Below are positions 947-19,655 of a stretch of DNA of 64,000 bases, piece by piece; the first letter of the stretch is position 1, and every line of letters starts with the position of its first letter. A program made the translations under genes and the position numbers. Location: contig CAWHDR010000001.1 of assembly GCA_963828165.1 (NCBI GenBank), forward strand, positions 2,112,001 to 2,176,000, written 5' to 3'. This DNA comes from an uncultured Chloroflexia bacterium (GTDB lineage Bacteria; Chloroflexota; Limnocylindria; Limnocylindrales; CSP1-4). A model generated the notes under the pieces. The model was not told the DNA's origin and made no database searches. It saw only the letters and a program-made list of their open reading frames with translations.

Positions 947-1187
947 CGCGGTCCTCCTCGGGGATGTCGTCTTGGCATCACGATACCCATTAGACCGGGA
1001 TGGGACGCCGAACTCATCGGTCGCGATGCGCAAGAGGCTCACGCCCGCCGTCTTGGATCGCCCATTTGCCGGATGGGCACACATCGGCCAGCTCTACGTC
1101 GCCATAATGGTGGTCGCGGGACCGCGCGCGGGTTTCGTGGGAGCGACCGGGCCACCGGCCGTTGGGGACGTTGGGGAGGGATCCGCG

Positions 1188-4100: not shown

Positions 4101-7100
4101 CTGTCCGTCACGGTCGATACCATCGCGCCGACGGCCCCCACCGGTCTCGACCTCGCGGCTGCGTCCGACTCGGGCAGTTCTTCCACCGACAACATCACGA
4201 CGGACACAACGCCGACGTTGACCGGTGTGGCCGAGGCCGGAACCACCGTGTCTCTCCTCGACGGAGCGGCGCCGGTCGGTTCCGCAACCGCGACCGGCGG
4301 CGCATGGACGATCACCTCGTCGGCCCTGTCCAGCGCCGCTCACACGTTTACGACAAGGGCGACCGACACCGCGGGAAACCTCGGCCCAGCGTCGACCACG
4401 CTCGTGGTCACGATCGACGCCGTCGCTCCCTCAGCGGACTACACGACCCCGAACGAGGCAACGACGATCGCGATCAGCGCATCGAGTTACGGCGTTGGCT
4501 GGAGTGAGAACGGAACCGGTTCCACCGTTGCGACGCGTTCGCTCCAACGCAGGAGCGGGACGGTCGTGACGCCCGGGACCTGCGCCGGCGTCTCCTTCGC
4601 CACCGACGGTTCGCCGGTGAGTACCACGTCGCCGGTCACCTCGAGCGGCCTGACCACGGAACGGTGCTATCAATGGGTGCAGACCCTCACGGATACGGCT
4701 GGCAATAGTGCGCCGATTTCGAGCGGATTCGTCATCGTCGGGGCGGCGGGGCCGTCATCGGAGTTCACCACCCCCAACGAGAGCACGACGAGCCGGCAGT
4801 ACACGACCGGCTATACGGTCGACTGGATCGAATCCGGGCCTGTGGCGACAAGCCGCTCATTGCAGCGGCAACGCGCGGCGATCGCCACGGCCGGCTCATG
4901 CGCCGGACTGACCTTCGCAGACGACGGAGCGCCGATCACCACGGCGGCGCCGGTCGTCGTGACCGGGCTCGCCGGTGGCTACTGCTACCAATGGACGCAA
5001 ACGCTCACCGCCGGCACCAGCAGCACGGCAACCAGTGGAACCGTCCTCATCGACGTCACGCCGCCGACCGTCACCGTCGGAACCCCGGCCGTCGATGTCA
5101 TCCAAGCAGCCACGAACCTGACCGTGAGTTGGACGGAGGCGGACGTTCACGCAGGCGTGGTCAACCGCACCGTCCAGCGCGAGGTTGGCCTTCCGATCGA
5201 GCCGGGTACTTGCACCGGTGTCATATGGGCCTCAGATGGGCCGACGAGCGTGAACGCCTCGCCCCTCGGCGCCACCGGGCTCGTGTCTGGGCGGTGCTAC
5301 CGCTGGGTCATCACGGTGAACGACCGGGCCGGCAATGGATACGCACAGCCGACCGGCCTCGTCCTGGTGGATACGTCTGCTCCGGACGTGTCCTGGACGG
5401 CGCCGGCGGGCCCCCCGCCGGTGGCCCACGGCGCGACCGCGATCGACGTCGACTGGATCGCGACGGACGCCGCGGCCGGCCTGACGAGCACCTCGATCCA
5501 GCGTGAGGCCGCTGCCCCGTCGGGCGGCGGCTGCCCCGCGAACGGTTGGACGAACGACGGATCCGCCGCGACGACCGTACCTCCGCTGCATGTCGAAGGC
5601 CTCCAGCCGTCAACCTGTTATCGCTGGGTCCTCACCGCGTCTGACGCGGCGAACAACATCCGGGTCTCGACATCACCGACGGTCCTGACCAGCGCCGCGC
5701 TCATCGAATCGTCCGCGCCCGGCGACACGGTCTTCGAGATCGAACCCGTCGATGCATCGCTGGACGGCTCGATCTCCGTCGCGAGCGTCGAACTCCTCGT
5801 CGACGGGGCGACCGTCGGCTCCGATGCGGCGACCCCGTTCACGATCCCGTGGACGACGACCGGCCTGACCGATGGCCATCACACTCTCGCGCTCCGAGCG
5901 CAGCTCGTGGGCGGGGGATCCGTCACCTCCGCTCCCGTATCCGTCCAGGTCGACAACGCACTATCCGCGGCCGAGCGGGTGCTCGCCGACGACACCAAGG
6001 GCCGGCTCACGCCTGACGAGTTCGCCCTCTACGGCGTGTACGCGGTCGGGTCCGTCTGGTCGCTACCGCCGCGCTATCAATCGGATACCGCGTCGAAAGG
6101 ATTCGTTGATGATGCGCAATTCACCGCCAACCTCGAAGACCTCGAGCCGGCGACCCAGAATGAGATCAACGCCTTTCTTGCCCAGCCCTACCGAGGCGAA
6201 GGCTATCAGCCGCCGCCGAATGCGCCCTTCGAGGAGCGCGACCACCAGTGGGTGGACTGCTTCGACACGCTCATCCTCGTCCGCTGCGAGCGCGAGTACG
6301 ACCACTTCACCCTCTATTACGGCCAACCGAGCGACACTGACTCGACCCGCGTCGGGACCGCCGACACGCTCGACGACAGCCTCCTCGCGAACAGCGGCCC
6401 AGATGGCGTCCCCGACTACATCAACAAGCTCGGCATCGAGCTCGAGCGCGCGCGAATCCAGTACGCGGCGATGGGCTATCAGCAGGTCGGTGACCGGATC
6501 AGCGTCTACCTGAACGCCGGTGTCCTCTGCCCCGAGACTCGGGAATGCGCTCACGCGGATGGCAACATCTACGTACCTCCGACCACGAACCGGCCGTACT
6601 ACACCGCCAGACACGAGTTGTTCCATCGCTTCCAAGCCAACTACCTCGACAAGCTGGTCGTCGACTATTGGTTCTGGTTCGAAGGAAGCGCTGAGTGGGC
6701 TACCAAGATCCTCAATACGGCCGAGCGTCCCGGCCCCGAATACGCGGGCAGCCTCGTCCCGTATCTGAAGTCGCGAAACGAACCGCTCACCAAGAACGAG
6801 GATGGCCGCAAGTACGGCACCTGGCTCTTTGCGACGTACCTCCAACAACGGTTCGGGTCGGATTTCATCCATAAGACTTGGGACACGGACGGCGAATTCT
6901 GGGACGTCGTTTCGCAGGCGGCCGCAGCGGAGCCGAATGCGGCGACGCTTGAGGAGATCCTCCTGGACTACGCCGAGAGCGCCTACCTCTTCGATTTCGC
7001 GAATGAGCCCGACTTTGCTGACTGGCGCGAAGACAGGCTCAACCACGACGATCCTGTCGAGCCTGAAGTCCACGGGGACGCGGTCAATCCCAACGGAAGG

Positions 7101-8933
7101 CCCCACACGTCGATACCGGTCGCCCCCGGAGGGGCGCCCGCCTGGGGCGTCGTCGCGGTCCACCCAAGCGGCTTCGACAGCCTTGAATTCGTGCCGCCTC
7201 CCAACACCTTTGGGACGATCAAGATCGACGTGTTCCAGGCAGACGCCCTTCAGGTGTCCGCAAAGCTCATGCGCATGGGTGCGTACCCGACCAACGTGAC
7301 GCCGCCCGATGGGCCGATCGCACCGGTGTGTGATACCACTACGCTCAATTTCCCGACCGATCCGGCACAAACCGTGCCCGGCCCCGCCGCCGACCCGATC
7401 GAGTGGGGCCACGCCGAGGTGGAGATCGCCATCAACCCGGCGTGCCCCTATGCGGCATTGGTCCTTGCCCACACCCTCGGAGAGGGCGACGTCAAGCCGA
7501 TCTGGTACACCGCCACGTTCGTCGAGGACGCCCGCCGCATCGACGACTTCAACCGGCAATACACGGCGACGGCGACGTCCGACAGCTACGGCGTCTCGTC
7601 CTCCGGTGAGCCGTGGATCGGCGCAGGCATCGAGGCCCTTGGGTCGCGCGGAGCTGACGGTTCATACGGGTATGTAGATGGCAGTTCGCCGACGCCCCAC
7701 ATCGAGCTCCCGGCGTCCCTACGCGGCCAAGAGTTCACGGCCACGGTTCGCTTCCGATTCAACGGTCCGCCGGCGACCACGACCTCACAGGAGTCCAGCT
7801 GGCTGTACGTCGGTGTCAGCGACATCGTCAAGCACGGCTACTTCTACGGTGAGCAATCGCCGTTCGTGGAGATCGACTTCAACAACGGCCTTTCCGAAGG
7901 CAACGGCCAAATGGGCTTGTGGGGTGGCGACGCGAACGAGGACCCCGATTGGCAAGGCGACTGGGTGTTCATCCCGACCGAGCAGGACGTCGTGGACTTC
8001 ACCTCCAGCACGTGGTACACGCTGAAGTACCACTTCGTGCCAGGCGTCAAACACGAAAGCAAGATGTGGCAGTTGGGGGACCCGGAGCCCGACTATCAGA
8101 TCTCGGACTCGATGGACTATCGATGGGCGGAGGCACCCGGCGTCCCTGGCGCAGGTCCGATCCAGGGCAAGTACCTGTGGCTCGACGTACGCGGCTTCAA
8201 CGGCCTCGCGGAAGTGGACTACCTCGATGTGGTCGGCGGCGGGGGGAACCTCGACGATTTCGAGCGAACAGTGGCGTCCGGTTGGGGCACGGCATCGAGC
8301 GCCCTGTCGTGGTCGGCCACGGGTGACACGGACACGCTCCTTGTCGACGGTTCGAACGGTGTCGTCGCTGCGCCAGCTCAGACCCTGACGATCGTCCGGC
8401 CATCCATCGATGCGCCGGTCGACAGCACGACTCCGTGGGGTGCGACTGACGCATTCACCATGACCTCACGCTTCAAGGTGGACCATGTCTACTCGAGCTC
8501 GGCGTACACGACACTGGTCTACAAGTTCGAGCGGGAGTCTCCGAGCGACGACTCTCGTTTGTTCGCGTTCGAAATCACGAATCACACGAGCCCGGGGAAC
8601 ATCTACGCGACCGCTACCAACCAAGGCGGCCAATCGAACGAGTTCTACCTACCCAAGGCCGATTGGATCGCTGACTGGTACATGATCAAGTGGGAATTGG
8701 AACCGGGCGTGTCTTCGAAGTTCAAGATCTGGCCCGAGAGTGAGCCCGAACCGGCTGCCTGGACAGGGGAGCTCGTCGACACCGGCGGGTTGAGCCTGCG
8801 CAACACGCACCACACGAGGTTCACGATCGAGGTGTGGAACAGCGCTGCCGGTCTCAACAACGCGGCGACACTCGCGAATAACGTCCGGATCGACTACATC
8901 CATTTCGAGGAGGCGGCGTCAGCTGGTCCGTGA
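1188..8933 (+). CDS. giant secreted protein: signal peptide, WapA/RHS-type N-terminal region, DNRLRE domain, Ig-like repeats, HExxH zinc metalloprotease domain, C-terminal beta-rich repeats
   Basis: ATG 1188 after GGGAGGG; hydrophobic leader; DAHV..NF..LRWDLS..W.ESGVTWN..PRLSVTY; SDTG.S..DNIT repeats; HELFH at 6612 followed by WFEGSAEW. Confidence 0.85.
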   Translation: MVGRLRPRALALLMVALVSWQGGSAPAAFAADPSPEHPPSESAGPSPVLPTPPPDAEPSAQPTTAFPPLPAGADRPPAGRELVERRTERSQTFDNGDGTLTTLFFTTPVFFKVQDKGSWRPIELGFLPSSDPGLAAISDRAPTSVAVANEAGADSFLTLRAKGRTIRFGLPADLRKVAAKTKPTFDGPAADFADFQPGVDLRILAGAHGAKSFFIWRERPAKTTIRYVVDAPGLTLRKQADGSIAMVDPAGTEVARIPRPFAVDSTKDAFAGSGRFTEKVSLAIAKDGRTVTISVDPDWLAAAEFPVHVDPSTGWVYNAGTNAYGDAHVASNYPTLNFDDYQRPDSPFYHELWNGTDPSGTSGTSYDFLRWDLSAINNSTIDSASLALVPYHQYYNAPTQETTYARRVTSSWTESGVTWNAKPTYTTTGTATQGCVEGNWCTWAVTSIVQVWATTPSTNFGFQIDTIGKNSTFWKRFIASEQGGTNRPRLSVTYHTPTASPATPTGWRNSRALAWTYADTSGHAGSHYEFDVDTDANFAAPLTHDGAAVAGAGTTASIPTSVTLTSGTTYHWRVRVKDGTSWSPWATRTFQWDATAPTGTISLNGGAAYATSSTVTATLSMSDAHSGPSQMRFSTNGGTSWSAFEPYATSKAWALPAGDGPKTLSVQFQDAATNTSATYSDALTVDTVNPLGTISINGGAVSTNTTSVTLNVTASDATSGVAATHSSNDGTTWTLVTGTTVPWTLTTGDGTKTVYHRVTDGAGRTTTVTDTILLASDSTPPGAPSQPDLVAASDTGASSTDNITNDATPTFTGTAEADSTVTIHDGPTAVGSGLASGGVYTVTTSSLPNGVRSITATATDASNNTGPSSTALSVTIDTTSPAVPSTPDLDAASDSGSSTTDNVTTDTTPTLSGTAEAGTTVSLLDGATPSGSGTATAGAWTITASVLSDGSHALTVRATDTAGNQSGVSSALSVTVDTIAPTAPTGLDLAAASDSGSSSTDNITTDTTPTLTGVAEAGTTVSLLDGAAPVGSATATGGAWTITSSALSSAAHTFTTRATDTAGNLGPASTTLVVTIDAVAPSADYTTPNEATTIAISASSYGVGWSENGTGSTVATRSLQRRSGTVVTPGTCAGVSFATDGSPVSTTSPVTSSGLTTERCYQWVQTLTDTAGNSAPISSGFVIVGAAGPSSEFTTPNESTTSRQYTTGYTVDWIESGPVATSRSLQRQRAAIATAGSCAGLTFADDGAPITTAAPVVVTGLAGGYCYQWTQTLTAGTSSTATSGTVLIDVTPPTVTVGTPAVDVIQAATNLTVSWTEADVHAGVVNRTVQREVGLPIEPGTCTGVIWASDGPTSVNASPLGATGLVSGRCYRWVITVNDRAGNGYAQPTGLVLVDTSAPDVSWTAPAGPPPVAHGATAIDVDWIATDAAAGLTSTSIQREAAAPSGGGCPANGWTNDGSAATTVPPLHVEGLQPSTCYRWVLTASDAANNIRVSTSPTVLTSAALIESSAPGDTVFEIEPVDASLDGSISVASVELLVDGATVGSDAATPFTIPWTTTGLTDGHHTLALRAQLVGGGSVTSAPVSVQVDNALSAAERVLADDTKGRLTPDEFALYGVYAVGSVWSLPPRYQSDTASKGFVDDAQFTANLEDLEPATQNEINAFLAQPYRGEGYQPPPNAPFEERDHQWVDCFDTLILVRCEREYDHFTLYYGQPSDTDSTRVGTADTLDDSLLANSGPDGVPDYINKLGIELERARIQYAAMGYQQVGDRISVYLNAGVLCPETRECAHADGNIYVPPTTNRPYYTARHELFHRFQANYLDKLVVDYWFWFEGSAEWATKILNTAERPGPEYAGSLVPYLKSRNEPLTKNEDGRKYGTWLFATYLQQRFGSDFIHKTWDTDGEFWDVVSQAAAAEPNAATLEEILLDYAESAYLFDFANEPDFADWREDRLNHDDPVEPEVHGDAVNPNGRPHTSIPVAPGGAPAWGVVAVHPSGFDSLEFVPPPNTFGTIKIDVFQADALQVSAKLMRMGAYPTNVTPPDGPIAPVCDTTTLNFPTDPAQTVPGPAADPIEWGHAEVEIAINPACPYAALVLAHTLGEGDVKPIWYTATFVEDARRIDDFNRQYTATATSDSYGVSSSGEPWIGAGIEALGSRGADGSYGYVDGSSPTPHIELPASLRGQEFTATVRFRFNGPPATTTSQESSWLYVGVSDIVKHGYFYGEQSPFVEIDFNNGLSEGNGQMGLWGGDANEDPDWQGDWVFIPTEQDVVDFTSSTWYTLKYHFVPGVKHESKMWQLGDPEPDYQISDSMDYRWAEAPGVPGAGPIQGKYLWLDVRGFNGLAEVDYLDVVGGGGNLDDFERTVASGWGTASSALSWSATGDTDTLLVDGSNGVVAAPAQTLTIVRPSIDAPVDSTTPWGATDAFTMTSRFKVDHVYSSSAYTTLVYKFERESPSDDSRLFAFEITNHTSPGNIYATATNQGGQSNEFYLPKADWIADWYMIKWELEPGVSSKFKIWPESEPEPAAWTGELVDTGGLSLRNTHHTRFTIEVWNSAAGLNNAATLANNVRIDYIHFEEAASAGP
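3516..4415 (+). repeat. three 300-bp intragenic repeats encoding Big_13-like Ig domains
   Basis: Units start at about 3516, 3816 and 4116, each P.L.AASD(T/S)G.S.TDN.T.D.TPT..G.AEA. Confidence 0.85.
4416..5690 (+). repeat. four degenerate ~105-aa Ig-like repeats with a conserved cysteine pair
   Basis: Recurrent QR...C...(F/W)..DG....GL....CY.W..T pattern. Confidence 0.7.
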
Positions 8934-8974: not shown

Positions 8975-9394
8975 ATGCCGTTGGGGATCCATGGGTGGAC
9001 CGCCGCCGCCAAGCACGCCACGGTGGCGACCGGGCTTGCAATTGGCGTGGTCGCCAGTACGAGTGCGTGCCTGGACACCGGCGGTTTTACCGTTCTGGGA
9101 CGTAATGAGTCCGATCAGGACGTGATCGTCAGCATCACGGGAGATGATCCCGGATCGCTCCGGCTGCCAGCACGGACCTGGGGTCGGCTGTTCGTCTCGT
9201 TTCAGCCTCCCGCCGGCGATCTGAAGGTGTTCGACGGATCCTGCCGCCCGCTCACCTCGGTACCGTTCACGCAGCCTGATGTCACGGTTCGAATCGCGCC
9301 CGACCGTGTCGTGGAGTTGATCGGAAATCAGTGGCAGGCGCCCGAGGGCGTCCGACGCGAAGAAGGGGAGTTCCCTGCGGCGCGATGCCCGTAG
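8975..9394 (+). CDS. small putative lipoprotein
   Basis: Hydrophobic leader ending VASTSA-C; directly follows the giant gene. Confidence 0.6.
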   Translation: MPLGIHGWTAAAKHATVATGLAIGVVASTSACLDTGGFTVLGRNESDQDVIVSITGDDPGSLRLPARTWGRLFVSFQPPAGDLKVFDGSCRPLTSVPFTQPDVTVRIAPDRVVELIGNQWQAPEGVRREEGEFPAARCP

Positions 9395-9505
9395 GAGCGT
9401 TTCGCCGACTTCGCGTTCGTGTTGGGAATCGATGAGTTTCGGCGCGGTACGCCGTTACACCTCCAGATCGGCCGATCCGGACGGTCACCAGTGGAGGCTC
9501 GAACC

Positions 9506-9957
9506 ATGGACTACACGCTCGAACTCATCGTGGTCCCTGTCAGCGACGTCGATCGCGCAAAGGACTTCTACATCAACAAGGCCGGCTTTGAGCTGCTCGT
9601 CGACACGAGTGCCGGCCCGGACTTCCGCGTCGTCCAGCTCGTTCCGCCGGGGTCCGCGTGCGCGATCGCGATCGGGACAGGGATCGGCTCGATGCCGGCG
9701 GGCTCGCTCCATGGGCTGCACCTCTGCGTCAGCGACATCGAGGCGGCGCGCGAGGAGCTGTCCGGCCGTGGCGTGGAGCTGTCCGACACCTTCCACTACG
9801 GCGAGGCCGGCCAGACGCCCGGCATCGACCCCGAGCGGCGGAGCTACGCGACGTTCATGCCGTTCCAGGATCCCGACGGCAACACCTGGCTCGTCCAGGA
9901 AGTCAAGCGGGACTGGAAGGTCACGACGTCAAGATCGACGAGGAGGCCGCCGCGTGA
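9506..9957 (+). CDS. VOC/glyoxalase family protein (apparent 1-nt frameshift near 9910)
   Basis: LELIVVPVSDVDRAKDFY...FQDPDGNTWLVQE; alternative-frame tail EGHDVKIDEEAAA* ends in a GTGA overlap with the sigma gene. Confidence 0.8.
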
Positions 9958-10922
9958 CCGATCAGGCCGGGGCCGCATTCGCCGGTGGGGAGTCCGCATT
10001 CGCGGCCCTCACCGAGCGATACCGGCGCGAGCTTCACGTCCACTGCTACCGGATGCTCGCATCGTTCGACGAGGCGGAGGACGCGGTCCAGGAGACGTTC
10101 CTGCGGGCATGGCGGGCCCGCGAGACCTTCGACGGCAGCGGGCTGGTGCGGGCGTGGCTATATAAGATCGCCACGAACGTCTGCCTGGATGCCATTCGGC
10201 GGGCGGGCCGGCGGCTGAGCGCCATGGAGACGATCCGCGAGGTGCCGTGGATCACGCCGTATCCCGACCGCCTGCTCGACGAGATGGCCCCGACCGAGGA
10301 TGAGCCCGACGCCGTCGTCGTCACGCGTGAGACGATCGAGCTCGCGTTCCTGGCGGCGCTGCAGGTCTTGCCGCCGCGGCAGCGGGCGACGCTGATCGCC
10401 CGCGACGTGCTGGGGTGGCCGGCGAGCGAGACGGCCTTCGCATTGGACACGACGGTCGCGTCCGTGAACAGCGCGCTGCAGAGGGCGCGGGCGACCCTGC
10501 AGGCCCACATGCCCGCGAGGCGGACGGACTGGTCCGCGGGCGAACCGAGCGAAGCGGAACGGAAGCTGCTCGCCAGCTTCATCGAAGCGCACGAGCGAGG
10601 CGATGCCGCCCTCGCCGTCTCGATCGCGTCGAAGGACCTGCGCATCACGATGCCACCGGCACCGATGCTGTTCGAGGGGATCGGCGTCATCCGACCGCTG
10701 CTGGAGAACGCCTTCGCCGACGGCAGCTCGTGGCGGCTCGTTCCGACGGTGGCCAACCGGATGCCAACGGCCGCGAGCTACGTCAAAGCGCCCGGCGACG
10801 ATACGTACCGCGCGTTCAAGCTCGACGTCCTGCGCGTGGTCGACGGCCGCATCGCGGAGATCACGACATTCGGCTGGTCGCTGTTCCCGCACTTCGGGTT
10901 GCCGGAGACCGTCGAAGCGTAG
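9954..10922 (+). CDS. ECF sigma-70 factor with C-terminal SnoaL-like extension (SigG-like)
   Basis: HCYRML..DEAEDAVQETFLRAW, WLYKIATNVCLD, LPPRQRA, SVNSALQRAR; SnoaL-like tail TMPP...ANRMP. Confidence 0.9.
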   Translation: MTDQAGAAFAGGESAFAALTERYRRELHVHCYRMLASFDEAEDAVQETFLRAWRARETFDGSGLVRAWLYKIATNVCLDAIRRAGRRLSAMETIREVPWITPYPDRLLDEMAPTEDEPDAVVVTRETIELAFLAALQVLPPRQRATLIARDVLGWPASETAFALDTTVASVNSALQRARATLQAHMPARRTDWSAGEPSEAERKLLASFIEAHERGDAALAVSIASKDLRITMPPAPMLFEGIGVIRPLLENAFADGSSWRLVPTVANRMPTAASYVKAPGDDTYRAFKLDVLRVVDGRIAEITTFGWSLFPHFGLPETVEA

Positions 10923-10931
10923 CGGGCCCCC

Positions 10932-11168
10932 CTACGCTTCGATGAGCTGGACCCCGGCAATATCTCCTGCCGCGATCGAGGCGGCCTGCCCGAATGGGCC
11001 GGCAGGTATGTATACATAATTGGGGACGCCACCCTGCGCATAGAAACGATCCGCCGGCCCGGTCATTGCCGCAAAGACTTGGGCGTGGAGCGCTTCTGCT
11101 GCCGCGTCGTCGAGAGGCCCGGACTCATAGAACGAGCCGTCACGCTTCGAGACTCTAAGGATCTTCAT
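10932..11168 (-). CDS. hypothetical protein (78 aa)
   Basis: AAGGAG RBS; protein-like composition; last gene of the minus-strand operon. Confidence 0.65.
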   Translation of the reverse strand: MKILRVSKRDGSFYESGPLDDAAAEALHAQVFAAMTGPADRFYAQGGVPNYVYIPAGPFGQAASIAAGDIAGVQLIEA

Positions 11169-11219
11169 CTGGTCTCCTTGCTTAGCAGCCGTCCACCATG
11201 CCGCCGAAGCGGGAATGGC

Positions 11220-11453
11220 CTACGGACACTTCTCCTTGTGGAGCGCGTCACCACCGCAAATCACACCCGTGACGATGAGCTCTCCCACGATGCCAAAACG
11301 CTGTGCCATATACGGTTGAATTTGTTTCAGCACACTCTTGGTGCTCGGCCAGTACCTGCAGAACGCCGTCCAACTCTCAGGCTCACCCGTCGATACGTTC
11401 ACACCGGCCCGAAGCTCTCGGGCAACTTCACTTACTGTTGGGCTTGCTGCCAT
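11220..11453 (-). CDS. hypothetical protein (77 aa)
   Basis: GGGAGG RBS before ATG 11453; MAASPTVSEV...FCRYWP...ICGGDALHKEKCP. Confidence 0.6.
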   Translation of the reverse strand: MAASPTVSEVARELRAGVNVSTGEPESWTAFCRYWPSTKSVLKQIQPYMAQRFGIVGELIVTGVICGGDALHKEKCP

Positions 11454-11519
11454 CTCTGACCTCCCAGTCCGCTGTGGAGCTCCTTCCGAGAATTGCAATC
11501 ACTCGTGGCGCGAACTCCG

Positions 11520-12077
11520 CTACTCAGTCGGACCGTTCGTGGCGGCGGAAAGTTCGACCGCCACAGGGTCCACGCTGATCACGGGCCGGACGCCGTCATC
11601 GCGTTGCCGAGGCACACGAATCCACCGGACGGTCCCGTCGCCGCCGTGGTAGGACTTCTGTGCAGCGAGTTCCGAATTGAAGTCGATCCGGATGGGACCC
11701 CCTTCTCCGCCGTGGCTCGCCAACCACGGGTTTCCACCGGTCGACAACACGAGACAGACGTGATTGCCTGTTCCGCGCCCGAACACCACCAGGTCACCGA
11801 CTCGCACACTGCGGCGAGCGATCTGCGTGCCGTGTGAGAGGATTGTGCCCGTGTAGCCTTGGCCGTTGTATCCGAGGCCGTTCGGATCCGGAGCCCCCGC
11901 CCAGTTGTAGCAAATGGTCACGAACGCAGAACAGTCGATCGTGAGGGGGAGCTTCCGTCGTTTCGCTCGCCCAATTCCTTGCATCGGGCGTGACTGCCGG
12001 TAGTGGATCTGCCCCTTCCTGGCGATCATCCACTCAGCTTCATCGTTAGTCGCCTGGATGGCTGCGTCATCTCCCAC
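11520..12077 (-). CDS. NlpC/P60 family peptidoglycan endopeptidase
   Basis: IDCSAFV catalytic Cys, GDLVVF, NHVCLV His; AAGGAG RBS; no signal peptide seen. Confidence 0.8.
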   Translation of the reverse strand: MGDDAAIQATNDEAEWMIARKGQIHYRQSRPMQGIGRAKRRKLPLTIDCSAFVTICYNWAGAPDPNGLGYNGQGYTGTILSHGTQIARRSVRVGDLVVFGRGTGNHVCLVLSTGGNPWLASHGGEGGPIRIDFNSELAAQKSYHGGDGTVRWIRVPRQRDDGVRPVISVDPVAVELSAATNGPTE

Positions 12078-12093
12078 TTAGCTCTCCTTTAAA

Positions 12094-13407
12094 TCAACCC
12101 ACTCCGGCGGTGAAGTCGATCTCCATGGCCCATGAAGGGTGGTCGATCATCGGATTACAATTCCCCTGGAGCCGCCAGGTGGCCTCATTTCGATGGTGTT
12201 CGTACGCATCCGGTGGCCCTGCGGTGTGCCAGGCAAGGAGCGTCTCGAGCCGGAATACTCCGGTGGCGAGCGCTGGGTAGCGAAGAAGGAAGTACAACGC
12301 CGCACGACTGACCGCACCTTTCGACCGATGGGGTTCGAATCCCTCGGCTTCCCGCTTGCCGCACTTGTCCCTGATCACCTCTCGATAGTCATGGAAGTCG
12401 GTGTAGGCGTAATTGCCCCGGAAGCTGTTGCATTTCGCCTCACATGTGAAGAGATGGTGGAGGTCACCCCGCATCGGTTCCTCGTAGTCGAACCATGACT
12501 GTGGAACTACGTGCTCGCAGTTGTACGGGTAGCGAGCATCAAGCTCGGACTCCGCGATCGACTCTTGGACTAGCTCTCTCCGTCTGGCTCGGACTGCCAG
12601 ACCCTCGGCGATCAGCGCCCGAGGGTCGTAACGGTCGCCGGTGTAGATACTCTCGATGTGACCTTCCGCGCGAAGGTCGACACATGGATACAGGAACAGC
12701 GGGGGGTCGTACGGTCGAGGTGTCGTGTGCGTCTCCGCGAGGACCTTCGAGATGCGCCAGAATCTGTCGGTTGGATTTTCCGCACCGACGACAGCATCCC
12801 AATACCCGGCGATGGGGCCGCCGGCGGCATACTGACCCAATTCGCAAGAGGCGAGTTCCTCGAACGCCAGTGCTTCGACTTCCGTGGACTCTTCGACGCC
12901 CGCGTTCAACGTCGTTGGCGTTCGGCTCCTGGCGGTGCCGTACCGCCCGTCCCTGAACAGGATTCCTTCCGCCCTGCGCCGCCGGACCAGCCCCGCCATC
13001 CCGCCATTCGTCCAGCGAGCGAGCTCGCTCGGAACCGACTTTCGATCCCCTGCATTCAGCTTCTTCCGGAGGGTCGAGCCCTCAAAAGCTCCCAGACCGA
13101 CGTTGAACGCGAAGCTTACGAGCGCGTCGAATTCATGCTGGGCCATGCGAACGTTGATGAGACGTTCGAGGCCAACTGCGAACCTCTTGGCGTCCTGACG
13201 CAGAAGCGCCAGACCTTGTGTACGAGTGATCCCGCGTTTAAATTGTGCCGGCTCTGAGCCATTACAAATTCCGTGGTGGACGAGGTGTCCAAAGCCGATC
13301 GTGCAATGACCCGCCGGATCGTTGTAGAGGCGTCCCTCAAAGCCCTCCCAGCCTCCGATGAAGCGTACGCCGCGATCGCTGATGGCCCTGGCAATCTGCT
13401 CATTCAT
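12094..13407 (-). CDS. GH24 phage-type lysozyme fused to endonuclease I (EndA-like His-Me) domain
   Basis: WEGFEGRLYNDPAGHCTIGFGH gives E-x8-D-x5-T; FDALVSFAFNVG and GLVRRRRAE; C-terminal NCEHVVPQSWF..PMRGDLHHLF....CNSFRGN, KGAVSRA, GNCNPMID; single uninterrupted frame. Confidence 0.9.
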   Translation of the reverse strand: MNEQIARAISDRGVRFIGGWEGFEGRLYNDPAGHCTIGFGHLVHHGICNGSEPAQFKRGITRTQGLALLRQDAKRFAVGLERLINVRMAQHEFDALVSFAFNVGLGAFEGSTLRKKLNAGDRKSVPSELARWTNGGMAGLVRRRRAEGILFRDGRYGTARSRTPTTLNAGVEESTEVEALAFEELASCELGQYAAGGPIAGYWDAVVGAENPTDRFWRISKVLAETHTTPRPYDPPLFLYPCVDLRAEGHIESIYTGDRYDPRALIAEGLAVRARRRELVQESIAESELDARYPYNCEHVVPQSWFDYEEPMRGDLHHLFTCEAKCNSFRGNYAYTDFHDYREVIRDKCGKREAEGFEPHRSKGAVSRAALYFLLRYPALATGVFRLETLLAWHTAGPPDAYEHHRNEATWRLQGNCNPMIDHPSWAMEIDFTAGVG

Positions 13408-13432
13408 ACGATGGACCCCCTCCCATGCGTCC

Positions 13433-14236
13433 CTACCAGGCGATGTGGAGGTGCGTGTCGTGGCCTCCGTCGCCAGGGCCGAGGACCTCGGTCGCACCGA
13501 GCTGCCGACATCGGTTCATAAACGCGCGGAATCCTGGGTGCGAGCGATTGATCGGCCGCCCATTGAGCACGTCGCAGTCGAACGCGACGCCCCGGTAGTG
13601 CCGGCTATTCACCGAATGCGATCCACCCGCGATCTCGGTCAGTCTGAATTTGTTCCTCTGCGCCAGCGTCTTCAACGCACGCAGCATCGCGACGCTCAGC
13701 CACACGGATCCACCTGGAGCGTTGCCATATGAACTGCGCTTTGCAGGGCGCCCAGCAGCGGTGTCCGTCATGTTGTGAAGGGCCGTCGCCTGGTCCTTGA
13801 CACCCGAGATGTGGAAGTTGAGCAGTGCGACCTTGCGCCCGACCAGAATCTCTTTCGCGATCTGTGCTCGCTCGGAAGCACGGTCCTCCGGAGCGTCACT
13901 GTCATCGGGCGGGGCAGCCGGCGCCTCTCCTGAGTCCGGTTCCTCGTCAACGCTTCCTGCCACGAGGTCTTCGAAACGCTCCAGCTCCCGTCGAAGCCTC
14001 GACTCGTATCCGATCTTCAATGACTTCCCCGTGGCGGTCACGGTAGATGCGGCGCGCGCTGCATCCACAAGGACTGTCAGCTGATAGGAGTCCCACCACT
14101 CATTCCCAGCACGAAATCCACCGTCATGCTCGTCGTAGATCCCACCGATCCGCATGTCCTCTGCGGCCAGATAGCACCATGAGAGTGTCTCAGCCCGGGT
14201 TAGCGGTACCTCGAATTGGGTTTCCAGTTCAACCAC
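13433..14236 (-). CDS. peptidase M15-like Zn D-Ala-D-Ala carboxypeptidase with unknown N-terminal domain
   Basis: SHSVNSRHYRGVAFD (SxH-x6-D) and HDTHLH motifs; GGGAGGG RBS. Confidence 0.75.
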   Translation of the reverse strand: MVELETQFEVPLTRAETLSWCYLAAEDMRIGGIYDEHDGGFRAGNEWWDSYQLTVLVDAARAASTVTATGKSLKIGYESRLRRELERFEDLVAGSVDEEPDSGEAPAAPPDDSDAPEDRASERAQIAKEILVGRKVALLNFHISGVKDQATALHNMTDTAAGRPAKRSSYGNAPGGSVWLSVAMLRALKTLAQRNKFRLTEIAGGSHSVNSRHYRGVAFDCDVLNGRPINRSHPGFRAFMNRCRQLGATEVLGPGDGGHDTHLHIAW

Positions 14237-14264
14237 CGTCGATCCCTCCCTGTGCTCCCGGTCC

Positions 14265-15056
14265 CTATCCAGTTGGCGTATCCAGATGCCGCCGCAAGAA
14301 TTTCAGCGTCTCGGCGGCGGCAACTTCCGCGTCGGGGTTCGTGGGCGCGACGACGCCGTCCTTTAGGACTGAGTGACGGTGTGAAGCCGCGGTTCCTACT
14401 TGCCGCCGCTCGCACGCCGAAAACACGATCTGAGTCCGGCCATATCGCTCGCTGGGTGACATCCAGTCGCCTTCATATCGCATCGTCCTGATCGACGCTC
14501 CCGGGCCACGAAGCCCTTGGACCTCTGCTAAGTCGCTTTCCGATAATCCAAGGGCTTGCCGCTGGGTTCGGGTGATGGGGAACGGCAAGGATGGCTGGCT
14601 CATGACGGCGGCCGTGACCGTGGGTTCGACCATCGCCCCCAGCGCGAAGCCTCCCGAAAAGCACATCCCGATGACGACTACCCGCGACTTGCCCCCGTTT
14701 GCGACCGTTCTGGCGTACGCTCGCAACCACTCGACGATGGCTCCCGTCCGGCTTGACGAGAGCGCGGCCATCTCTGACGCAAAGCAAATTCGCAGGATGC
14801 CCTCGAGGTCGCGCAACCTCCGTGAACCATGGCGCGGCATCTCCAAGAGCTCGGGAAGGAGTACCCGGAAGCCGGCCGCTTGAAGCCAGCCCGCGATGGC
14901 TAGCGTCGACGACGAGATGCCCGGTGATTCATGCATCAGGATGACGGAGGGCCCCCGTCCCTCGAGGACCAACACCCGGCGAGTGATCACACCGCGCGAA
15001 GTTTCGGCCTCAAACGTGACCGACGAGTAGCCGGGCGGCGTGGGCACCGGAGCCAT
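14265..15056 (-). CDS. dienelactone hydrolase family protein
   Basis: VILMHESPG and GMCFSGG Cys nucleophile elbow; late His in RHSVL. Confidence 0.85.
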   Translation of the reverse strand: MAPVPTPPGYSSVTFEAETSRGVITRRVLVLEGRGPSVILMHESPGISSSTLAIAGWLQAAGFRVLLPELLEMPRHGSRRLRDLEGILRICFASEMAALSSSRTGAIVEWLRAYARTVANGGKSRVVVIGMCFSGGFALGAMVEPTVTAAVMSQPSLPFPITRTQRQALGLSESDLAEVQGLRGPGASIRTMRYEGDWMSPSERYGRTQIVFSACERRQVGTAASHRHSVLKDGVVAPTNPDAEVAAAETLKFLRRHLDTPTG

Positions 15057-15061
15057 AGGTC

Positions 15062-15991
15062 TTACGCCGATCCAGTCGGGCGGTTGCCGTCCGCGACTAG
15101 GGCTTCATGGATTACCGGTGGAACCGCGGCGTGGTGCCAGTATGAAGAATGCGCGAGGCTCCAGGACCGTTCCTCGCCCTCAATCCTGTGGTCGCGAACC
15201 GCCGACCCGTCAGACAGTCGAAAGACCTTGCCTGCCAGGAAGGCGAGCGGATCCATGGCGTGCCAGATACTGAGCCACGACCCGATCGTGTCGGGAAGGA
15301 CTACGGGTCGTCCAGGAACATACGGCTCGAGCGCCCTCGCGCCGCCGCTCGGCGGAAGGAGGACACGCTGGCGTGGATCCAGCACGTGGAGTGCGGCCGA
15401 CTGACTTCCGACCGTGATCAGGTGCTTGATATGGATTTCGGGTGCCGTGCTAGCCGCGGCGTCGAAGGCGATGATCCCGCCCAGGCTATGCCCGATCACC
15501 GAAATGGGGCGATCGGCGGTTCCTAGGGTCGGATCGATGCCACGAAGTACCTCGCGCATTCGCACCTGGATCCGATCTCGAGCACTGACGTAGGTAAAGA
15601 CATCCCCGATGCCTTCCGCCGCAGGCGGTAGCGTCGCGACGCGGATCTTGGTCGTCGCTCGCTCCGCCCAGTCCTCGAACGGCCATTTGGTGAATAAACG
15701 ATCAATGAGCCAACCGAGCCGCCCGGGCAATCCGAAACCCGCGCCCACGGAAGGGATGTCGAGTCGGATCGTCGCCATGGTCTCGATCCCAGGGATCGTA
15801 TCGACGATGCCGGCGAAATCCGGCTGCAGATCACCCCAGTACGCGGGATAGAACCGATAACGAGGACCACCGGCGATCGCGTTCACAGTTCGCTGGAGAG
15901 ACTCGACTGACGCGCCAAACGAACTGGCGTCGCGGTTGGCCACGCCGTAAATCACGAGGACGGGTTCGGCCTGAATGCCCAAATCCCCCAC
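15062..15991 (-). CDS. lipase-like alpha/beta hydrolase
   Basis: GHSLGG, LITVGSQ, DPLAF, AHSSYW; GAGGAGG RBS. Confidence 0.8.
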   Translation of the reverse strand: MGDLGIQAEPVLVIYGVANRDASSFGASVESLQRTVNAIAGGPRYRFYPAYWGDLQPDFAGIVDTIPGIETMATIRLDIPSVGAGFGLPGRLGWLIDRLFTKWPFEDWAERATTKIRVATLPPAAEGIGDVFTYVSARDRIQVRMREVLRGIDPTLGTADRPISVIGHSLGGIIAFDAAASTAPEIHIKHLITVGSQSAALHVLDPRQRVLLPPSGGARALEPYVPGRPVVLPDTIGSWLSIWHAMDPLAFLAGKVFRLSDGSAVRDHRIEGEERSWSLAHSSYWHHAAVPPVIHEALVADGNRPTGSA

Positions 15992-16001
15992 TGCCTCCTC
16001 C

Positions 16002-16643
16002 TCAAATCCCCGGAAGCATACGCTCGGTCCGAGCGTTCAGCGGCGTGATTCGACCCTTGCCGGCTGGAAGAAGCTTCAGCCTTTGCCTTGAAAAATCTGC
16101 CGCCCGCTTGCGACGGGCGGCAAACCCCCAGCCCGAGGCTCCCGCCACCGTATCGGCGTATACGGCCCGATACTCCTCAGAGCTGGTAGCGAAATTGCAC
16201 GGCTCAAACGCATTCAAGAAGTCCTTGGCGATGCCGCCACCGAGCACGCCGTCGAAGTCATCGAACGCCTTGATGAATGCGGCCGACAGGAATCCGGTTA
16301 CGGCCGCGGCAGAAGCGGTCAGAACCTGTTTGGTATCTGCCGGAGTGCCCTCCGGCGTCTGCTGAGCCAGCCACACAGCGACCACGATGGACGCAGCCAC
16401 CGCGATCGCTGGAACCGCCAGGAGGGTCAGCGACCAACCTTCGAGGAGTGGGAGGGCGCCATTCGGATTCTTGCGAAGCTGCGTTTGGCCCACGCGCCGC
16501 GAAACAAATCCGATGAGCATTACCGCGGCCGTAACGACGATCGGTACGGCGAGGGAAACACTTGTTTGATAAGCGAGCCATGCCAGACCCACGCCGGCGA
16601 TTGCGGCAATTAGGCCGGGGAGGGCTTTGAGCATGGCGCTCAT
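16002..16643 (-). CDS. hypothetical membrane protein (about 4 TM helices plus basic tail)
   Basis: Four hydrophobic segments; ATG 16643 overlaps the upstream stop (ATGA). Confidence 0.7.
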   Translation of the reverse strand: MSAMLKALPGLIAAIAGVGLAWLAYQTSVSLAVPIVVTAAVMLIGFVSRRVGQTQLRKNPNGALPLLEGWSLTLLAVPAIAVAASIVVAVWLAQQTPEGTPADTKQVLTASAAAVTGFLSAAFIKAFDDFDGVLGGGIAKDFLNAFEPCNFATSSEEYRAVYADTVAGASGWGFAARRKRAADFSRQRLKLLPAGKGRITPLNARTERMLPGI

Positions 16644-16891
16644 TGGTCGACACGTTCGCTGCAATGTCGCGGATTGTGATTGCAGCAATAGCGAAGCCCG
16701 TCGTCACCTAGCTCCAGATGCAAAGGAGAAGGAGGGCGCGATCGATGGCATTCACTACCCTCGGCCGCAACAACGCTCAGGACGCGCGACGAAGCAAGCG
16801 AACGGAGAATCTGCGAGTCCGGATCCTCTGCGCGATCCGCCGCCTCCAGGAGTGCGGATCGCAGGACAAATTCCAGTCGATCGTTCTCCAT
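16640..16891 (-). CDS. hypothetical protein (83 aa) with Cys/His-rich C-terminus
   Basis: GGGAGGG RBS; ECH...YCCNHNPRHC; ATGA coupling to the next gene. Confidence 0.6.
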   Translation of the reverse strand: MENDRLEFVLRSALLEAADRAEDPDSQILRSLASSRVLSVVAAEGSECHRSRPPSPLHLELGDDGLRYCCNHNPRHCSERVDQ

Positions 16892-17208
16892 ACTCGTGCC
16901 CTCCCAGCGTGGACGATGGGGCGGCGTAGTCGTGCCACCATCCCAAGTGCGCGCATATATATCGCACCGCTGTCAATCCCGAAGTCAAATCACAGTTGTT
17001 TCCACCTAGTCTGTCTGGATTGCGGCCATCGCTCGTCGTCGGCGTCGGCCTGTTTTTACCGCTTCGCGGCAGGCCCGGTCATCTTCCTCGTGGCGACTGA
17101 TCGCAAATCCGGGCTGCGGCGACCGATCTCGGTGCTCCAAGCACTCGAGTCGAGGGATTGATTCACGGGAACAGTGGTTGGCTTGGACAACGCTGCGCAT
17201 CCCCGAGA

Positions 17209-18429
17209 TCACGACGTTCGGCCCGGAACGGTTCCGCGTGTTCGGGCTGCCGGAGACCCTCCCGACCTGATGTCACGATGCGGCCCCGCGGCGTCGTCAC
17301 CCGGACCTGCCCCCTCAATCACCACGATCGCCAGCAGCGCCGCCGCGACCGCGGCGAGCGGCCAGACAGGTGGCATTGACGCCACCAGTGCGAGAGCGCC
17401 GAGCATCACGGGAAGGATCAGGAGCCGGGGCACCAGGATCCGGCCGCCGAGCAATCGATACGACAGCGCCGAGAAGGCCACGAACAGCGACACGCCGATG
17501 CCGAGTGAGGCCAACACGGCGGCCGAGGCGGGTTCGTCGGGATGTGCCGCGATCTCCTCGATCGCCACCGCGAACCCGACGATGCCGCCGATCAGGGGGA
17601 AGTGGGCGAGGCTGAACGCATCCCGCGCCAGCGGGCCCAGTCGCTCGGGCGGGGCTGCCGCGTATCGATGCTCGAGCGCCTCCTTCAACCAGCCGAAGTA
17701 GGTCCACCACAGCAGGCTGGCGACGAGGATCGTCACGACGGCGGCCGACGCCAGGGCCACAGTTCGCTCGTCACTGGCCACCGCGGTCCCCGCGACGATG
17801 AGGGACTCGCCGATCGCGATGATCACGAACAGGGCGTGCCGTTCGGCGAGGTGCGACGGATTGAGGTCCCAGCTCGCGCCCCGGCCGGCCCACGCCGCCG
17901 CGATCACGTCGGCGACGATCGCAAGGAGCCAGAACAGAGGCCGCAACGACGGATCGACAACGGCCCCGATCAGTACGAGCGCCAGGCCGATGGTCGAGAG
18001 GGCCGACCAGGCGATCACGACGGTATGGCTGGCGTCGGCGCGTTCGCGATCCACGCCCACCTGGAGGGCCAGCCCGAGCGCGCGGACGAGGACGTACGGC
18101 ACCGCGAACCAAAGAGCGTCTTCGGCGAAGGCGCGCGTGACGGAAGCCGCCATGACCAGAGCGACGCCAGTCGCCACGAGGGTCACAACGCGAACGCCGG
18201 GATGGGTCGTGTCGGCCGGGTTGAGCGTCCACGTGAACTGCGTCCACGCCCACCAGATGAGCCACCCCAGCAGGATCGATCGGAGGACGCCGTCGGGTGT
18301 CAGGTCATGCGCCGTCAGGGCGGTGAGCTGCGTGATCGCAAAGACGAAGACAAGGTCGAAGAAGAGTTCGACGAAGGTCACCGATTGCGGGTCGGATGTC
18401 CGCAGATTGGACGGGAGTCGCGCACGCAT
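17209..18429 (-). CDS. ltrA: low temperature requirement protein A family
   Basis: VTFVELFFDLVFVFAITQL, IWWAW, HLAERHALFVIIAIGES. Confidence 0.9.
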   Translation of the reverse strand: MRARLPSNLRTSDPQSVTFVELFFDLVFVFAITQLTALTAHDLTPDGVLRSILLGWLIWWAWTQFTWTLNPADTTHPGVRVVTLVATGVALVMAASVTRAFAEDALWFAVPYVLVRALGLALQVGVDRERADASHTVVIAWSALSTIGLALVLIGAVVDPSLRPLFWLLAIVADVIAAAWAGRGASWDLNPSHLAERHALFVIIAIGESLIVAGTAVASDERTVALASAAVVTILVASLLWWTYFGWLKEALEHRYAAAPPERLGPLARDAFSLAHFPLIGGIVGFAVAIEEIAAHPDEPASAAVLASLGIGVSLFVAFSALSYRLLGGRILVPRLLILPVMLGALALVASMPPVWPLAAVAAALLAIVVIEGAGPGDDAAGPHRDIRSGGSPAARTRGTVPGRTS

Positions 18430-18560
18430 CCCGGCAGCGTAGCGGACGCCGAAACCTCAAAAGGAGTCAGTAGTCCGTATGGGTGATGACCTCACCGAAA
18501 CAGGCCGGGATACTAGTGGTCCGGGCGCCGCGCGTGGTGCCATCGTCACCTGGGGGATCG

Positions 18561-19610: not shown

Positions 19611-19655
19611 GGCTCGGAGAATTGATTGACTGTCGATACGAAAGAGGGAGCATCG

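Follow-up and report, generated by a model that had tools for sequence, protein, structure and literature searches.

The window analysed here is a stretch of 64,000 nucleotides (nt) from the genome of an uncultured Chloroflexia bacterium (GenBank assembly GCA_963828165.1, contig CAWHDR010000001.1, positions 2,112,001 to 2,176,000), and all coordinates below refer to it. On its minus strand, at 12094..13407, lies a gene in which a phage-type lysozyme and a nuclease related to endonuclease I are joined. The open reading frame (ORF) is single and intact and encodes 437 amino acids (aa) from an ATG start. A longer frame with a GTG start extends to 13497. A GGGAGG-type ribosome-binding site, read from the sequence, lies about 8-11 nt 5' of the ATG, and the stop codon of the gene upstream falls at 13433, 25 nt ahead of it. 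The fusion gene is composed of three parts:

12943..13407, minus strand: GH24 phage-type lysozyme domain, residues 1-155, beginning at the first residues of the protein; recognised by Pfam, PHROG and fold; ratio of nonsynonymous to synonymous substitution rates (dN/dS) 0.106
12886..12942, minus strand: interdomain linker, residues ~156-174, predicted to be disordered
12094..12885, minus strand: nuclease module, residues 175-437 plus the stop codon; by alignment a complete copy of a signal-less Endonuclease-I-like clade with its own N-terminal helix

Pfam assigned Phage_lysozyme (PF00959) to residues 20-147 (E 6.4e-37, 127.1 bits against a cut-off of 22.3; 130.4 bits in a whole-genome scan) and Endonuclease_1 (PF04231) to residues 287-424 (E 1.1e-23, 84.7 bits against a cut-off of 25), the latter match spanning only positions 70-234 of the 235 in the profile. 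The catalytic triad of the lysozyme reads E21-x8-D30-x5-T36, and the nuclease motifs are NCEHVVPQSW at 296-305, DLHHL at 315-319 and CNSFRGN at 326-332. A preliminary description of this DNA, made from the letters alone, had placed lysozyme and endonuclease motifs in one frame. This was borne out, since every named motif is present and both domains score above their cut-offs; the joint occurrence of all these motifs is far beyond chance. The same description had the two halves joined by an acidic linker. The acidic stretch, VEESTEVEALAFEELAS, is indeed found at residues 171-187, but it is not a free linker; alignment with stand-alone homologues indicated that most of it belongs to the native N-terminal helix of the nuclease.

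The junction was examined in the AlphaFold2 (AF2) model and by comparison with these homologues. Residues ~156-174 form the sole long stretch of low confidence between the domains, the predicted local distance difference test score (pLDDT) being below 50 at 159-172. From about residue 175 (TEVEALAFEEL...) the fusion aligns with the N-terminal helix of stand-alone nucleases, proteins of about 260 aa that begin MELLQQALAEL.... Because the nuclease helix starts at about 175 and the linker is confined to 156-174, the fusion is a whole lysozyme gene extended by a whole nuclease gene.

An orthologue was found on a metagenome contig of 3526 nt from another assembly (L015). It is an ORF of 1314 nt whose product is 87% identical to the fusion at the amino acid level, without any indel. 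This indel-free copy, rather than the read mapping proposed earlier, answers the question of a stop or frameshift in the linker: there is none. Substitutions between the two genes were analysed by the Nei-Gojobori method. The dN/dS was 0.136 for the whole gene (dN 0.076, dS 0.56), 0.106 for the lysozyme part as given above, 0.113 for the N-terminal part of the nuclease and 0.083 for its core. Residues 156-200 had a dN/dS of 0.50 and were 60% identical, again without indels. The values of about 0.1 in each enzymatic half indicate that both have been under purifying selection while joined. The GC content is equal in the two halves, and GC at third codon positions (GC3) is 0.684 and 0.693; the two parts were therefore not brought together recently in this genome. 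It is concluded with high confidence that the protein is a genuine single polypeptide consisting of an endolysin-type GH24 muramidase and a complete Endonuclease-I-like His-Me DNase module.

The lysozyme half was compared with known families. E21, D30 and T36 are invariant in all 11 aligned lysozymes of the subfamily, and the best PHROG match is the endolysin family phrog_7 (E 1.6e-41). Among solved structures, the best sequence matches are Acinetobacter-type peptidoglycan hydrolases and prophage muramidases (9kbq, 3e-21; P22 lysozyme, 1e-12). When the AF2 model of the whole protein was searched with Foldseek, the top matches in the Protein Data Bank (PDB) were GH24 endolysins (probability 1.00, TMt 0.57-0.77), the confidence of the model being low for residues 25-47 of the lysozyme domain. 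By profile, motif and fold this half is thus a member of GH24, with a predicted muramidase activity. Its closest relatives, 57-66% identical, are either solitary proteins of 155-265 aa, mostly without signal peptides, or modules of multi-domain peptidoglycan hydrolases that also carry M15_3, M23, C39-like, Amidase_3, SH3 or PG_binding domains. The best matches in genomes (59%) came from Mycobacterium sp., Microbacterium sp. and metagenome-assembled genomes of Anaerolineales. The nearest Mycobacterium and Microbacterium relatives are solitary chromosomal genes, with no phage-like neighbours within the ~3.5 kb scanned. Viral contigs, 2.9 million of which were searched, contained at least 592 relatives of the lysozyme, with identities of up to 52%.

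The lysozyme subfamily has an insertion at residues 25-48 (HCTIGxGHLVHxGxC), in which H34, C35, H41 and H44 are invariant and C48 nearly so. This segment, rich in histidine and cysteine, may be a metal site; to our knowledge, it has not been described in characterised GH24 enzymes. One relative of 523 aa (P0003) consists of an N-terminal domain and two GH24 domains that are letter-for-letter identical, the linker preceding each included, which suggests either a very recent tandem duplication or a duplication during assembly.

In the nuclease half, E298 and N327 are invariant among 19 aligned relatives and H299 is nearly so. The best match among solved proteins is Vvn (~1e-6, ~23% identity), and the alignment covers the region of the metal-binding Asn. 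The Glu-His pair of the fusion is presumed, from the motif, to correspond to E79 and H80 of Vvn. A model of the nuclease domain reached a pLDDT of 79.8 and a predicted TM-score (pTM) of 0.83. Its top seven Foldseek matches are Vvn and Vibrio endonuclease I, all with probability 1.00 and weak scores (E 8e-3 to 4e-2, TMt 0.40-0.46). The Sec signal peptide of characterised endonuclease I was not found here: the nuclease is internal to a protein without an N-terminal hydrophobic segment, and its close stand-alone homologues start directly with the domain, likewise without a signal peptide. Taken together, the alignments place the nuclease in a divergent, signal-less clade of the Endonuclease I family rather than among orthologues of EndA or Vvn, and a DNase activity is predicted for it. 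Four cysteines are conserved in the clade (C297, C322, C326 and C349 in the numbering of the fusion). Whether they bind zinc or form disulfides bears on where the enzyme can be active.

The clade is widespread, with members in Streptomyces and other Actinomycetota, Nitrospira, Deinococcaceae, filamentous cyanobacteria, Myxococcales and Bacillaceae. It is nearly absent from the 2.9 million viral contigs, where nine loci were found, all at 32% identity or less. The domain architectures of the 120 best matches listed in a search with the fusion protein were counted by hand: 56 combine Trypsin_2 with Endonuclease_1, 61 carry Endonuclease_1 alone and one is a lysozyme only. The earlier description had this subtype of endonuclease more often standing alone or attached to a trypsin-like protease, and the matches listed agree with it. 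The nucleases of the Trypsin_2-Endonuclease_1 proteins are 45-56% identical to the nuclease half of the fusion. Ten further architectures of the clade were scanned; Trypsin_2 occurs in seven, with added zincin/ATLF-like, reprolysin-like, DUF1353 or EEP domains. On a Lysinibacillus plasmid, a gene for an S8 peptidase abuts the nuclease gene. Among the proteins compared with PADLOC models, the trypsin part of a Deinococcus relative alone matched, namely the RT-Protease models. These partners suggest that the clade bears the signature of intracellular conflict-system effectors and not of housekeeping periplasmic DNases. They are also the one hint of a processing site in the linker, which the preliminary description had proposed and which is speculative.

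Two other observations concern the same clade. In two of the ten architectures scanned (P0240 and P0161), a YLATT domain with three transmembrane (TM) segments is joined to the nuclease module, and these membrane-anchored versions may bear on how the clade is deployed. In a genome of the same genus (G005, locus L020, G005:C5:228000-247000, at ~9240-13270), a stand-alone copy of the nuclease is split over three reading frames and is probably a pseudogene. It directly adjoins a Peptidase_C14 (caspase) gene and a gene for a CHAT-domain protein of 854 aa, so that the arrangement resembles a caspase-nuclease locus whose nuclease is of the Endonuclease_1 type.

The frequency of the architecture was determined by several searches. 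A word-indexed search of 5.8 billion clusters gave 2617 matches among 7999 scored candidates; of the 120 best listed, only the query itself and an 87%-identical orthologue (P0002) contain both domains. A HMMER pass over 1.84 billion representatives gave 24,814 matches. In the best 150 listed, P0002 alone spans both domains, while 19 are confined to the lysozyme part and 130 to the nuclease part (hand count); the listed matches reach down to about 173 bits, and more distant GH24 + Endonuclease_1 fusions with lower scores fall outside them. In all 1779 phage records and all 628 plasmid records with a match, less than 80% of the fusion protein is covered. The fusion was not found in the genomes of 60 relatives besides its own (G000), the sole match being the broken nuclease-only gene of G005. 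Among 401 genomes of the class searched at E<=1e-10, two had a match: the source genome and one with a weak match to the lysozyme only. A search of the literature for the Pfam pair, for bifunctional endolysin-nucleases and for muramidase-DNase fusions found no characterised case. The preliminary description, which knew of no characterised precedent for the fusion, was thus right on this point. Two sequence clusters carry the fusion among the matches listed. By these searches the architecture is very rare and appears to be confined to one lineage.

The fusion gene is the fifth of eight tightly packed genes on the minus strand, which in turn are flanked by two copies of a direct repeat. The features of this region, in the direction of transcription, are:

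17196..17261, no strand assigned: right copy of an imperfect direct repeat of 66 nt; it is the 3' end that a sigma gene originally had, now displaced; right island boundary
16002..16688, minus strand: orphan membrane protein, first gene of the operon; 228 aa from a TTG start (213 aa in the database gene call, from ~16643)
15062..15991, minus strand: alpha/beta hydrolase with a GHSLGG nucleophile elbow, lipase/esterase-like, 309 aa; motif read from the translation
14265..15056, minus strand: alpha/beta hydrolase of the dienelactone hydrolase family, 263 aa; Pfam DLH, E 5.1e-10; C-terminus kept in L015
13433..14236, minus strand: LAS/M15-like zinc DD-peptidase protein, 267 aa, with an N-terminal domain specific to the lineage, a linker rich in acidic residues and proline, and the peptidase domain at the C-terminus
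12094..13407, minus strand: lysozyme-DNase fusion, fifth of eight operon genes; identified by Pfam
11520..12077, minus strand: NlpC/P60-type peptidoglycan endopeptidase, 185 aa, no signal peptide; NLPC_P60, E 8e-6, 26.2 bits against a cut-off of 23
11220..11453, minus strand: small ORF, probably 77 aa, with an ATG at 11453 after GGGAGG; a 92-aa version from a TTG reaches 11498; no Pfam match
10932..11168, minus strand: small ORF, last gene of the island, 78 aa, acidic, no Pfam match; AAGGAG followed by an ATG; first ~25 codons conserved in L015
10848..10913, no strand assigned: left copy of the 66-nt repeat, now the 3' end of the ECF sigma/SnoaL gene; left island boundary

The repeat search gave 76% identity between the two copies and a spacing of 6348 nt. 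In the closest relative (G026, 86-88% nucleotide identity), the ECF sigma/SnoaL gene and a convergent LtrA gene are adjacent and overlapping, and one single stretch matches both repeat copies. The same adjacency, with no island gene between, was detected by tblastn at two further loci (L021 and L023). The 6282 nt between the copies have a GC content of 61.9%, compared with 66.1% and 69.1% in the flanks, and a GC3 of 0.62-0.74, compared with 0.81-0.87. There is high confidence, on these comparisons, that the island of about 6.3 kb was acquired horizontally; it is absent from the closest relatives. Its insertion exchanged the original 3' end of the sigma gene for the 76%-identical copy. No integrase or other mobility gene was present among the island ORFs scanned. 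A remnant ORF of 30 codons at 17178-17270 on the plus strand (…RIPEITTFGPERFRVFGLPETLPT) is a second copy of the ECF sigma/SnoaL protein's C-terminus.

The proteins of the operon were examined individually. The orphan membrane protein has three to four hydrophobic windows on the Kyte-Doolittle scale; among 4630 candidates it matched only itself, and no Pfam or PHROG family was found for it. All Pfam matches of the GHSLGG hydrolase, such as Abhydrolase_1 and Thioesterase, lie below cut-off, and it matches a lactonizing lipase weakly (1ex9, E 0.11). Searches of both esterases against solved structures gave matches at E>0.03 only. The 267-aa protein has no Pfam match; its C-terminus matches the Zn D-Ala-D-Ala carboxypeptidase of Streptomyces albus (1lbu, E 7.6e-4), and its relatives, which JGI names zinc D-Ala-D-Ala carboxypeptidase, have PG_binding domains attached. 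The NlpC/P60 protein is kept in L015 and has weak NCBIfam matches of the RipA/RipB type. A Protein Atlas search with the orphan membrane protein and the 78-aa ORF gave scores below 0.9 throughout and no usable match. The C-terminus of the dienelactone hydrolase, the 267-aa gene, the fusion, the NlpC/P60 gene and the small ORFs are collinear in L015. Neither a signal peptide nor an N-terminal hydrophobic segment was found in any of the five enzymes, that is, the fusion and its four enzyme neighbours. No secretion system was found either, and the proposal of the preliminary description that the protein could open a wall and afterwards degrade DNA gained no support.

Mismatches between the 77-aa ORF and L015 fall on codon positions 1, 2 and 3 in the numbers 7, 10 and 32. 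The excess at the third position shows that this ORF is coding, and the 78-aa ORF likewise evolves as coding sequence. In L015 a deletion of 1 nt at the position equivalent to 11388 puts it out of frame, through an error of sequencing or through loss of the gene in the second lineage. Rfam gave no match at E<=0.1 over 10000-18000, and a scan for promoters and terminators gave counts at or below those expected from shuffled sequence.

Several features lie beyond the operon. Next to LtrA, a protein of 375 aa with a staphylococcal nuclease (SNase) domain is encoded at 18483-19610 on the plus strand, followed at 19626-20411 on the same strand by a channel-like Ion_trans protein of 261 aa with a SHOCT/GvpG-like C-terminal tail. 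In another Limnocylindria relative (L046, 4375-5043), a homologue of the dienelactone hydrolase gene of the island (42%) lies directly downstream of LtrA, and the site downstream of LtrA may be a recurrent variable spot. Far to the left, a giant ORF at 888-8933 on the plus strand encodes a probable surface protein of 2681 aa, which has several bacterial Ig-like domains (Big_13, Big_6 and Big_7) and matches DUF6055 weakly.

The conservation of the gene set was evaluated by tblastn. None of the other island genes was found near the lysozyme relatives (166 loci) or near the nuclease relatives (89 loci) outside the source genome. The combination of genes is therefore not a widespread conserved neighbourhood.

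The fusion and its neighbours were then compared with known systems. The phage GH24 endolysins (P22 lysozyme, R21 of phage 21 and the muramidases of Acinetobacter phages and prophages; PDB 2anv, 3hde, 6et6 and 9kbq) share the family, the triad and the fold, and the fusion lacks a signal peptide, as do endolysins that depend on holins. However, the fusion carries a DNase of 263 residues where endolysins have nothing or a wall-binding domain, its lysozyme has the extra histidine- and cysteine-rich insertion, and the gene lies outside any recognisable phage. Endonuclease I (Vvn and the EndA proteins of Vibrio cholerae and Vibrio salmonicida; PDB 1ouo, 1oup, 2g7e and 2pu3) belongs to the same Pfam family, PF04231, and has the EH(V)VP and metal-binding Asn motifs. 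In contrast to these enzymes, whose characterised members are periplasmic or extracellular housekeeping DNases, the nuclease of the fusion is only ~23% identical, lacks a signal peptide and begins with about 110 additional residues that form a helical region. The cysteines differ as well. Periplasmic endonuclease I has disulfides, and the four cysteines conserved in the clade of the fusion stand against the disulfide set of the periplasmic enzymes.

Kaur, Burroughs, Iyer and Aravind (2020, eLife, PMC7159879) describe a "System 3" in which cores of a trypsin or S8 protease and a His-Me nuclease recruit lysozyme and papain-like peptidoglycan-peptidase effectors. The same trio is seen here as lysozyme, NlpC/P60 and nuclease. 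Unlike System 3 as that text outlines it, the island has no protease, EAD1 adaptor or STAND NTPase, and the lysozyme of System 3 is separate and EAD1-linked, not fused to the nuclease (PMC7159879). The nuclease is named there as of the NucA/Endonuclease-NS type, whereas that of the fusion is Endonuclease_1 by Pfam, a comparison made by description only (PMC7159879). A published parallel for the fusion of activities is offered by the polyvalent proteins of phages (Iyer et al. 2017, J Bacteriol, PMC5512222), in which a lysozyme is combined with a DdrB-type ParB DNase and for which breach of the wall and nuclease action on DNA were proposed. They also combine a peptidoglycan-cleaving lysozyme and a DNase in one polypeptide, but the DNase has a ParB fold instead of the His-Me fold; unlike the fusion, they are large, virion-associated proteins encoded among late phage genes, usually with a processing metallopeptidase, and they are predictions rather than characterised enzymes (PMC5512222).

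Holin/endolysin cassettes and type 10 secretion systems (T10SS) resemble the island in that a membrane protein, signal-less peptidoglycan hydrolases and signal-less cargo are encoded at one locus (PMC9527704, PMC10847048, PMC13284979). The membrane protein of the island, however, has no detectable relation to any holin family. Known T10SS come from Gram-negative pathogens and Clostridioides, and the opening parts of the abstracts consulted describe no fused DNase. Protease-gated pro-nucleases have been reported in antiviral systems, including the canu caspase-nuclease loci (Tuck et al. 2025, Science, PMC12799240). The recurrent pairing of the nuclease clade with trypsin-like, subtilisin-like and caspase-family proteases is similar to these systems; the nucleases dealt with in that report have a metallo-beta-lactamase fold, however, and the fusion is without a partner protease (PMC12799240). 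No proteolytic activation of any Endonuclease_1-type protein was found in the literature searched.

With these comparisons in hand, the function of the operon was considered. It is tentatively suggested that the eight genes could form a membrane-gated lysis or cell-dismantling cassette in the style of holin and endolysin, with a tethered DNase; of the readings considered this is the favoured one, although it is somewhat less likely than not. What gives the operon the character of a cassette is the presence of three types of peptidoglycan hydrolase and two esterases on one strand without appreciable gaps. Since none of the enzymes has an export signal, they would reach the wall only through a breached membrane. 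The multi-TM product of the first gene, a candidate holin-like gate, would permeabilise the membrane. The muramidase, the DD-peptidase and the NlpC/P60 protein would then cut three types of bond in the sacculus, the two esterases would attack ester-linked components of the envelope, and the DNase tethered to the muramidase would destroy DNA in or around the dying cell. The fusion would tie the destruction of DNA to lysis of the wall through strict co-expression at a ratio of 1:1, and in this arrangement attachment to a muramidase would replace the coupling to a protease that is usual for the nuclease clade. Phage infection, stress or regulated autolysis could serve as the trigger. The enzyme activities, the role of the holin, the timing and the type of trigger are all inferred. 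The ancestry of the nuclease in a clade of protease-coupled effectors supports a role directed at the cell itself, such as abortive infection, programmed death or regulated autolysis. Precedents are the trypsin and His-Me nuclease cores with their lysozyme and peptidase effectors (Kaur et al. 2020) and, for a nuclease of another fold, the gating of pro-nucleases by proteases (Tuck et al. 2025). A more specific version, that this is a dismantling cassette without a sensor, in which a DNase clade normally checked by a protease has been rewired so that permeabilisation of the membrane and not proteolysis licenses the destruction of wall and DNA, is considered unlikely.

Several points weigh against a lysis cassette. 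No sensor, protease, NTPase or regulator was found in the island. The holin role of the orphan membrane protein, encoded by the first gene of the operon, is drawn only from its position and hydrophobicity, and there are no other phage genes in the island. PHROG matches are absent for six of the eight proteins scanned, with only the lysozyme and, weakly, the NlpC/P60 protein giving one, and "phage-type" describes the family of the lysozyme, not a demonstrated origin. PADLOC-DB 2.0 returned no family for the six island proteins submitted. An active DNase in the cytoplasm should be toxic, and no inhibitor was found. Finally, the four cysteines of the nuclease, if they form disulfides, could point to extracellular rather than intracellular action.

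A rival possibility is that the operon encodes an outward-directed antibacterial or scavenging cocktail, released by lysis of a subpopulation or by non-lytic export through holin and endolysin in the manner of type 10 systems. In that case the enzymes would attack neighbouring cells or environmental polymers; the muramidase would open or bind the wall of the target, the tethered DNase would degrade released or exposed DNA, and the producer would be shielded by the two small proteins in its cytoplasm, for example through inhibition of the DNase. A set consisting of a signal-less muramidase, amidase- or peptidase-type hydrolases, lipase-like esterases and a DNase resembles known repertoires of interbacterial effectors. 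[quoted passage not shown] Release of signal-less cargo by phage-derived lysis cassettes of the T10SS type has been reported (PMC10847048, PMC13284979, PMC9527704). On the other hand, no trafficking domain was found, and neither a recognisable secretion system nor a WXG100 protein was found in the genome, which is 87.7% complete. No genes of the size of immunity genes lie between the five enzyme genes, and no match identified the small ORFs as inhibitors. Nor is the layout that of a polymorphic toxin, as the N-terminus is a lysozyme catalytic domain and the next gene downstream encodes another hydrolase. Moreover, the usual partners of the nuclease clade are proteases of intracellular conflict systems. 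An outward-directed role is rated as rather doubtful.

It was also considered that the island could be the remnant of a lysis module from a prophage or satellite, without a present role in the cell, in which an endolysin gained the nuclease while in a phage, and all of the element but the island has since been lost by deletion. The lysozyme is of the GH24 endolysin type and has the viral relatives counted above. The island is bounded by a direct repeat at a gene's 3' end, which resembles an att duplication, and its GC content is low. Fusions of a lysozyme with a ParB-type DNase in Acinetobacter prophages, as described in the polyvalent-protein study (Iyer et al. 2017, PMC5512222), would be in line with such an origin. 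However, the island contains neither an integrase nor a structural gene, and neither an HK97-type capsid nor a second Phage_lysozyme was found in the genome at its completeness of 87.7%. The near absence of the nuclease clade from viral contigs argues against this origin, as does the failure of any matching phage record to cover most of the fusion protein. The genes are intact across two diverged copies, save for the 1-nt deletion in the 77-aa ORF of L015. Because the compared genes are intact and the dN/dS of the fusion is 0.136, the locus is not a decaying relic, and this explanation is regarded as quite improbable.

Very improbable is the explanation that the GH24 domain is a non-lytic module for wall binding or localisation, similar to SpmX, that places the DNase at the envelope for uptake or turnover of DNA or for processing of extracellular DNA. 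A weak NCBIfam match to the lysozyme-family localisation factor SpmX was obtained (37.9 bits against a cut-off of 700), and the muramidase domain of SpmX ranked third among the fold matches. Against this, the fusion has an intact catalytic E/D/T triad, which does not vary within the subfamily, the protein has no membrane anchor or export signal with which to reach the wall, and the surrounding genes encode hydrolases, not proteins of DNA uptake. That adjacent genes were merged by a sequencing error or a chimeric join, as an artefact of assembly or gene calling, is effectively excluded: the genome is a metagenome-type assembly of six contigs and the architecture occurs in two sequence clusters only, but the ORF is uninterrupted on the independent L015 contig, with a codon-wise pattern of substitution and collinear neighbours, and composition is equal across the junction.

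Each domain of the fusion is thus a member of a well-known family, whereas their union in a single polypeptide and the surrounding cassette were found nowhere else in these searches. Should both halves prove active, one naturally occurring polypeptide would cleave both peptidoglycan and DNA, and a muramidase-DNase of this kind may be of interest for the engineering of enzybiotics or anti-biofilm enzymes. The reach of the finding is limited to one lineage, that of an uncultured soil Chloroflexota host (Ca. Limnocylindria), in which the role is deduced from the genes. Beyond that lineage, a putative family of death effectors is suggested by the clade of Endonuclease_1 type that is joined to trypsin-like proteases in, among others, Deinococcus, Streptomyces, Nitrospira and cyanobacteria. 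The fusion links the phage-derived cassettes for lysis or type 10 release with the protease-coupled nuclease effectors of bacterial conflict systems. If the operon does act as a membrane-gated cassette without a sensor, it would represent a new wiring for programmed lysis or abortive infection in this lineage of Chloroflexota, and the fusion would be the first natural bifunctional muramidase-DNase in which both activities are required.

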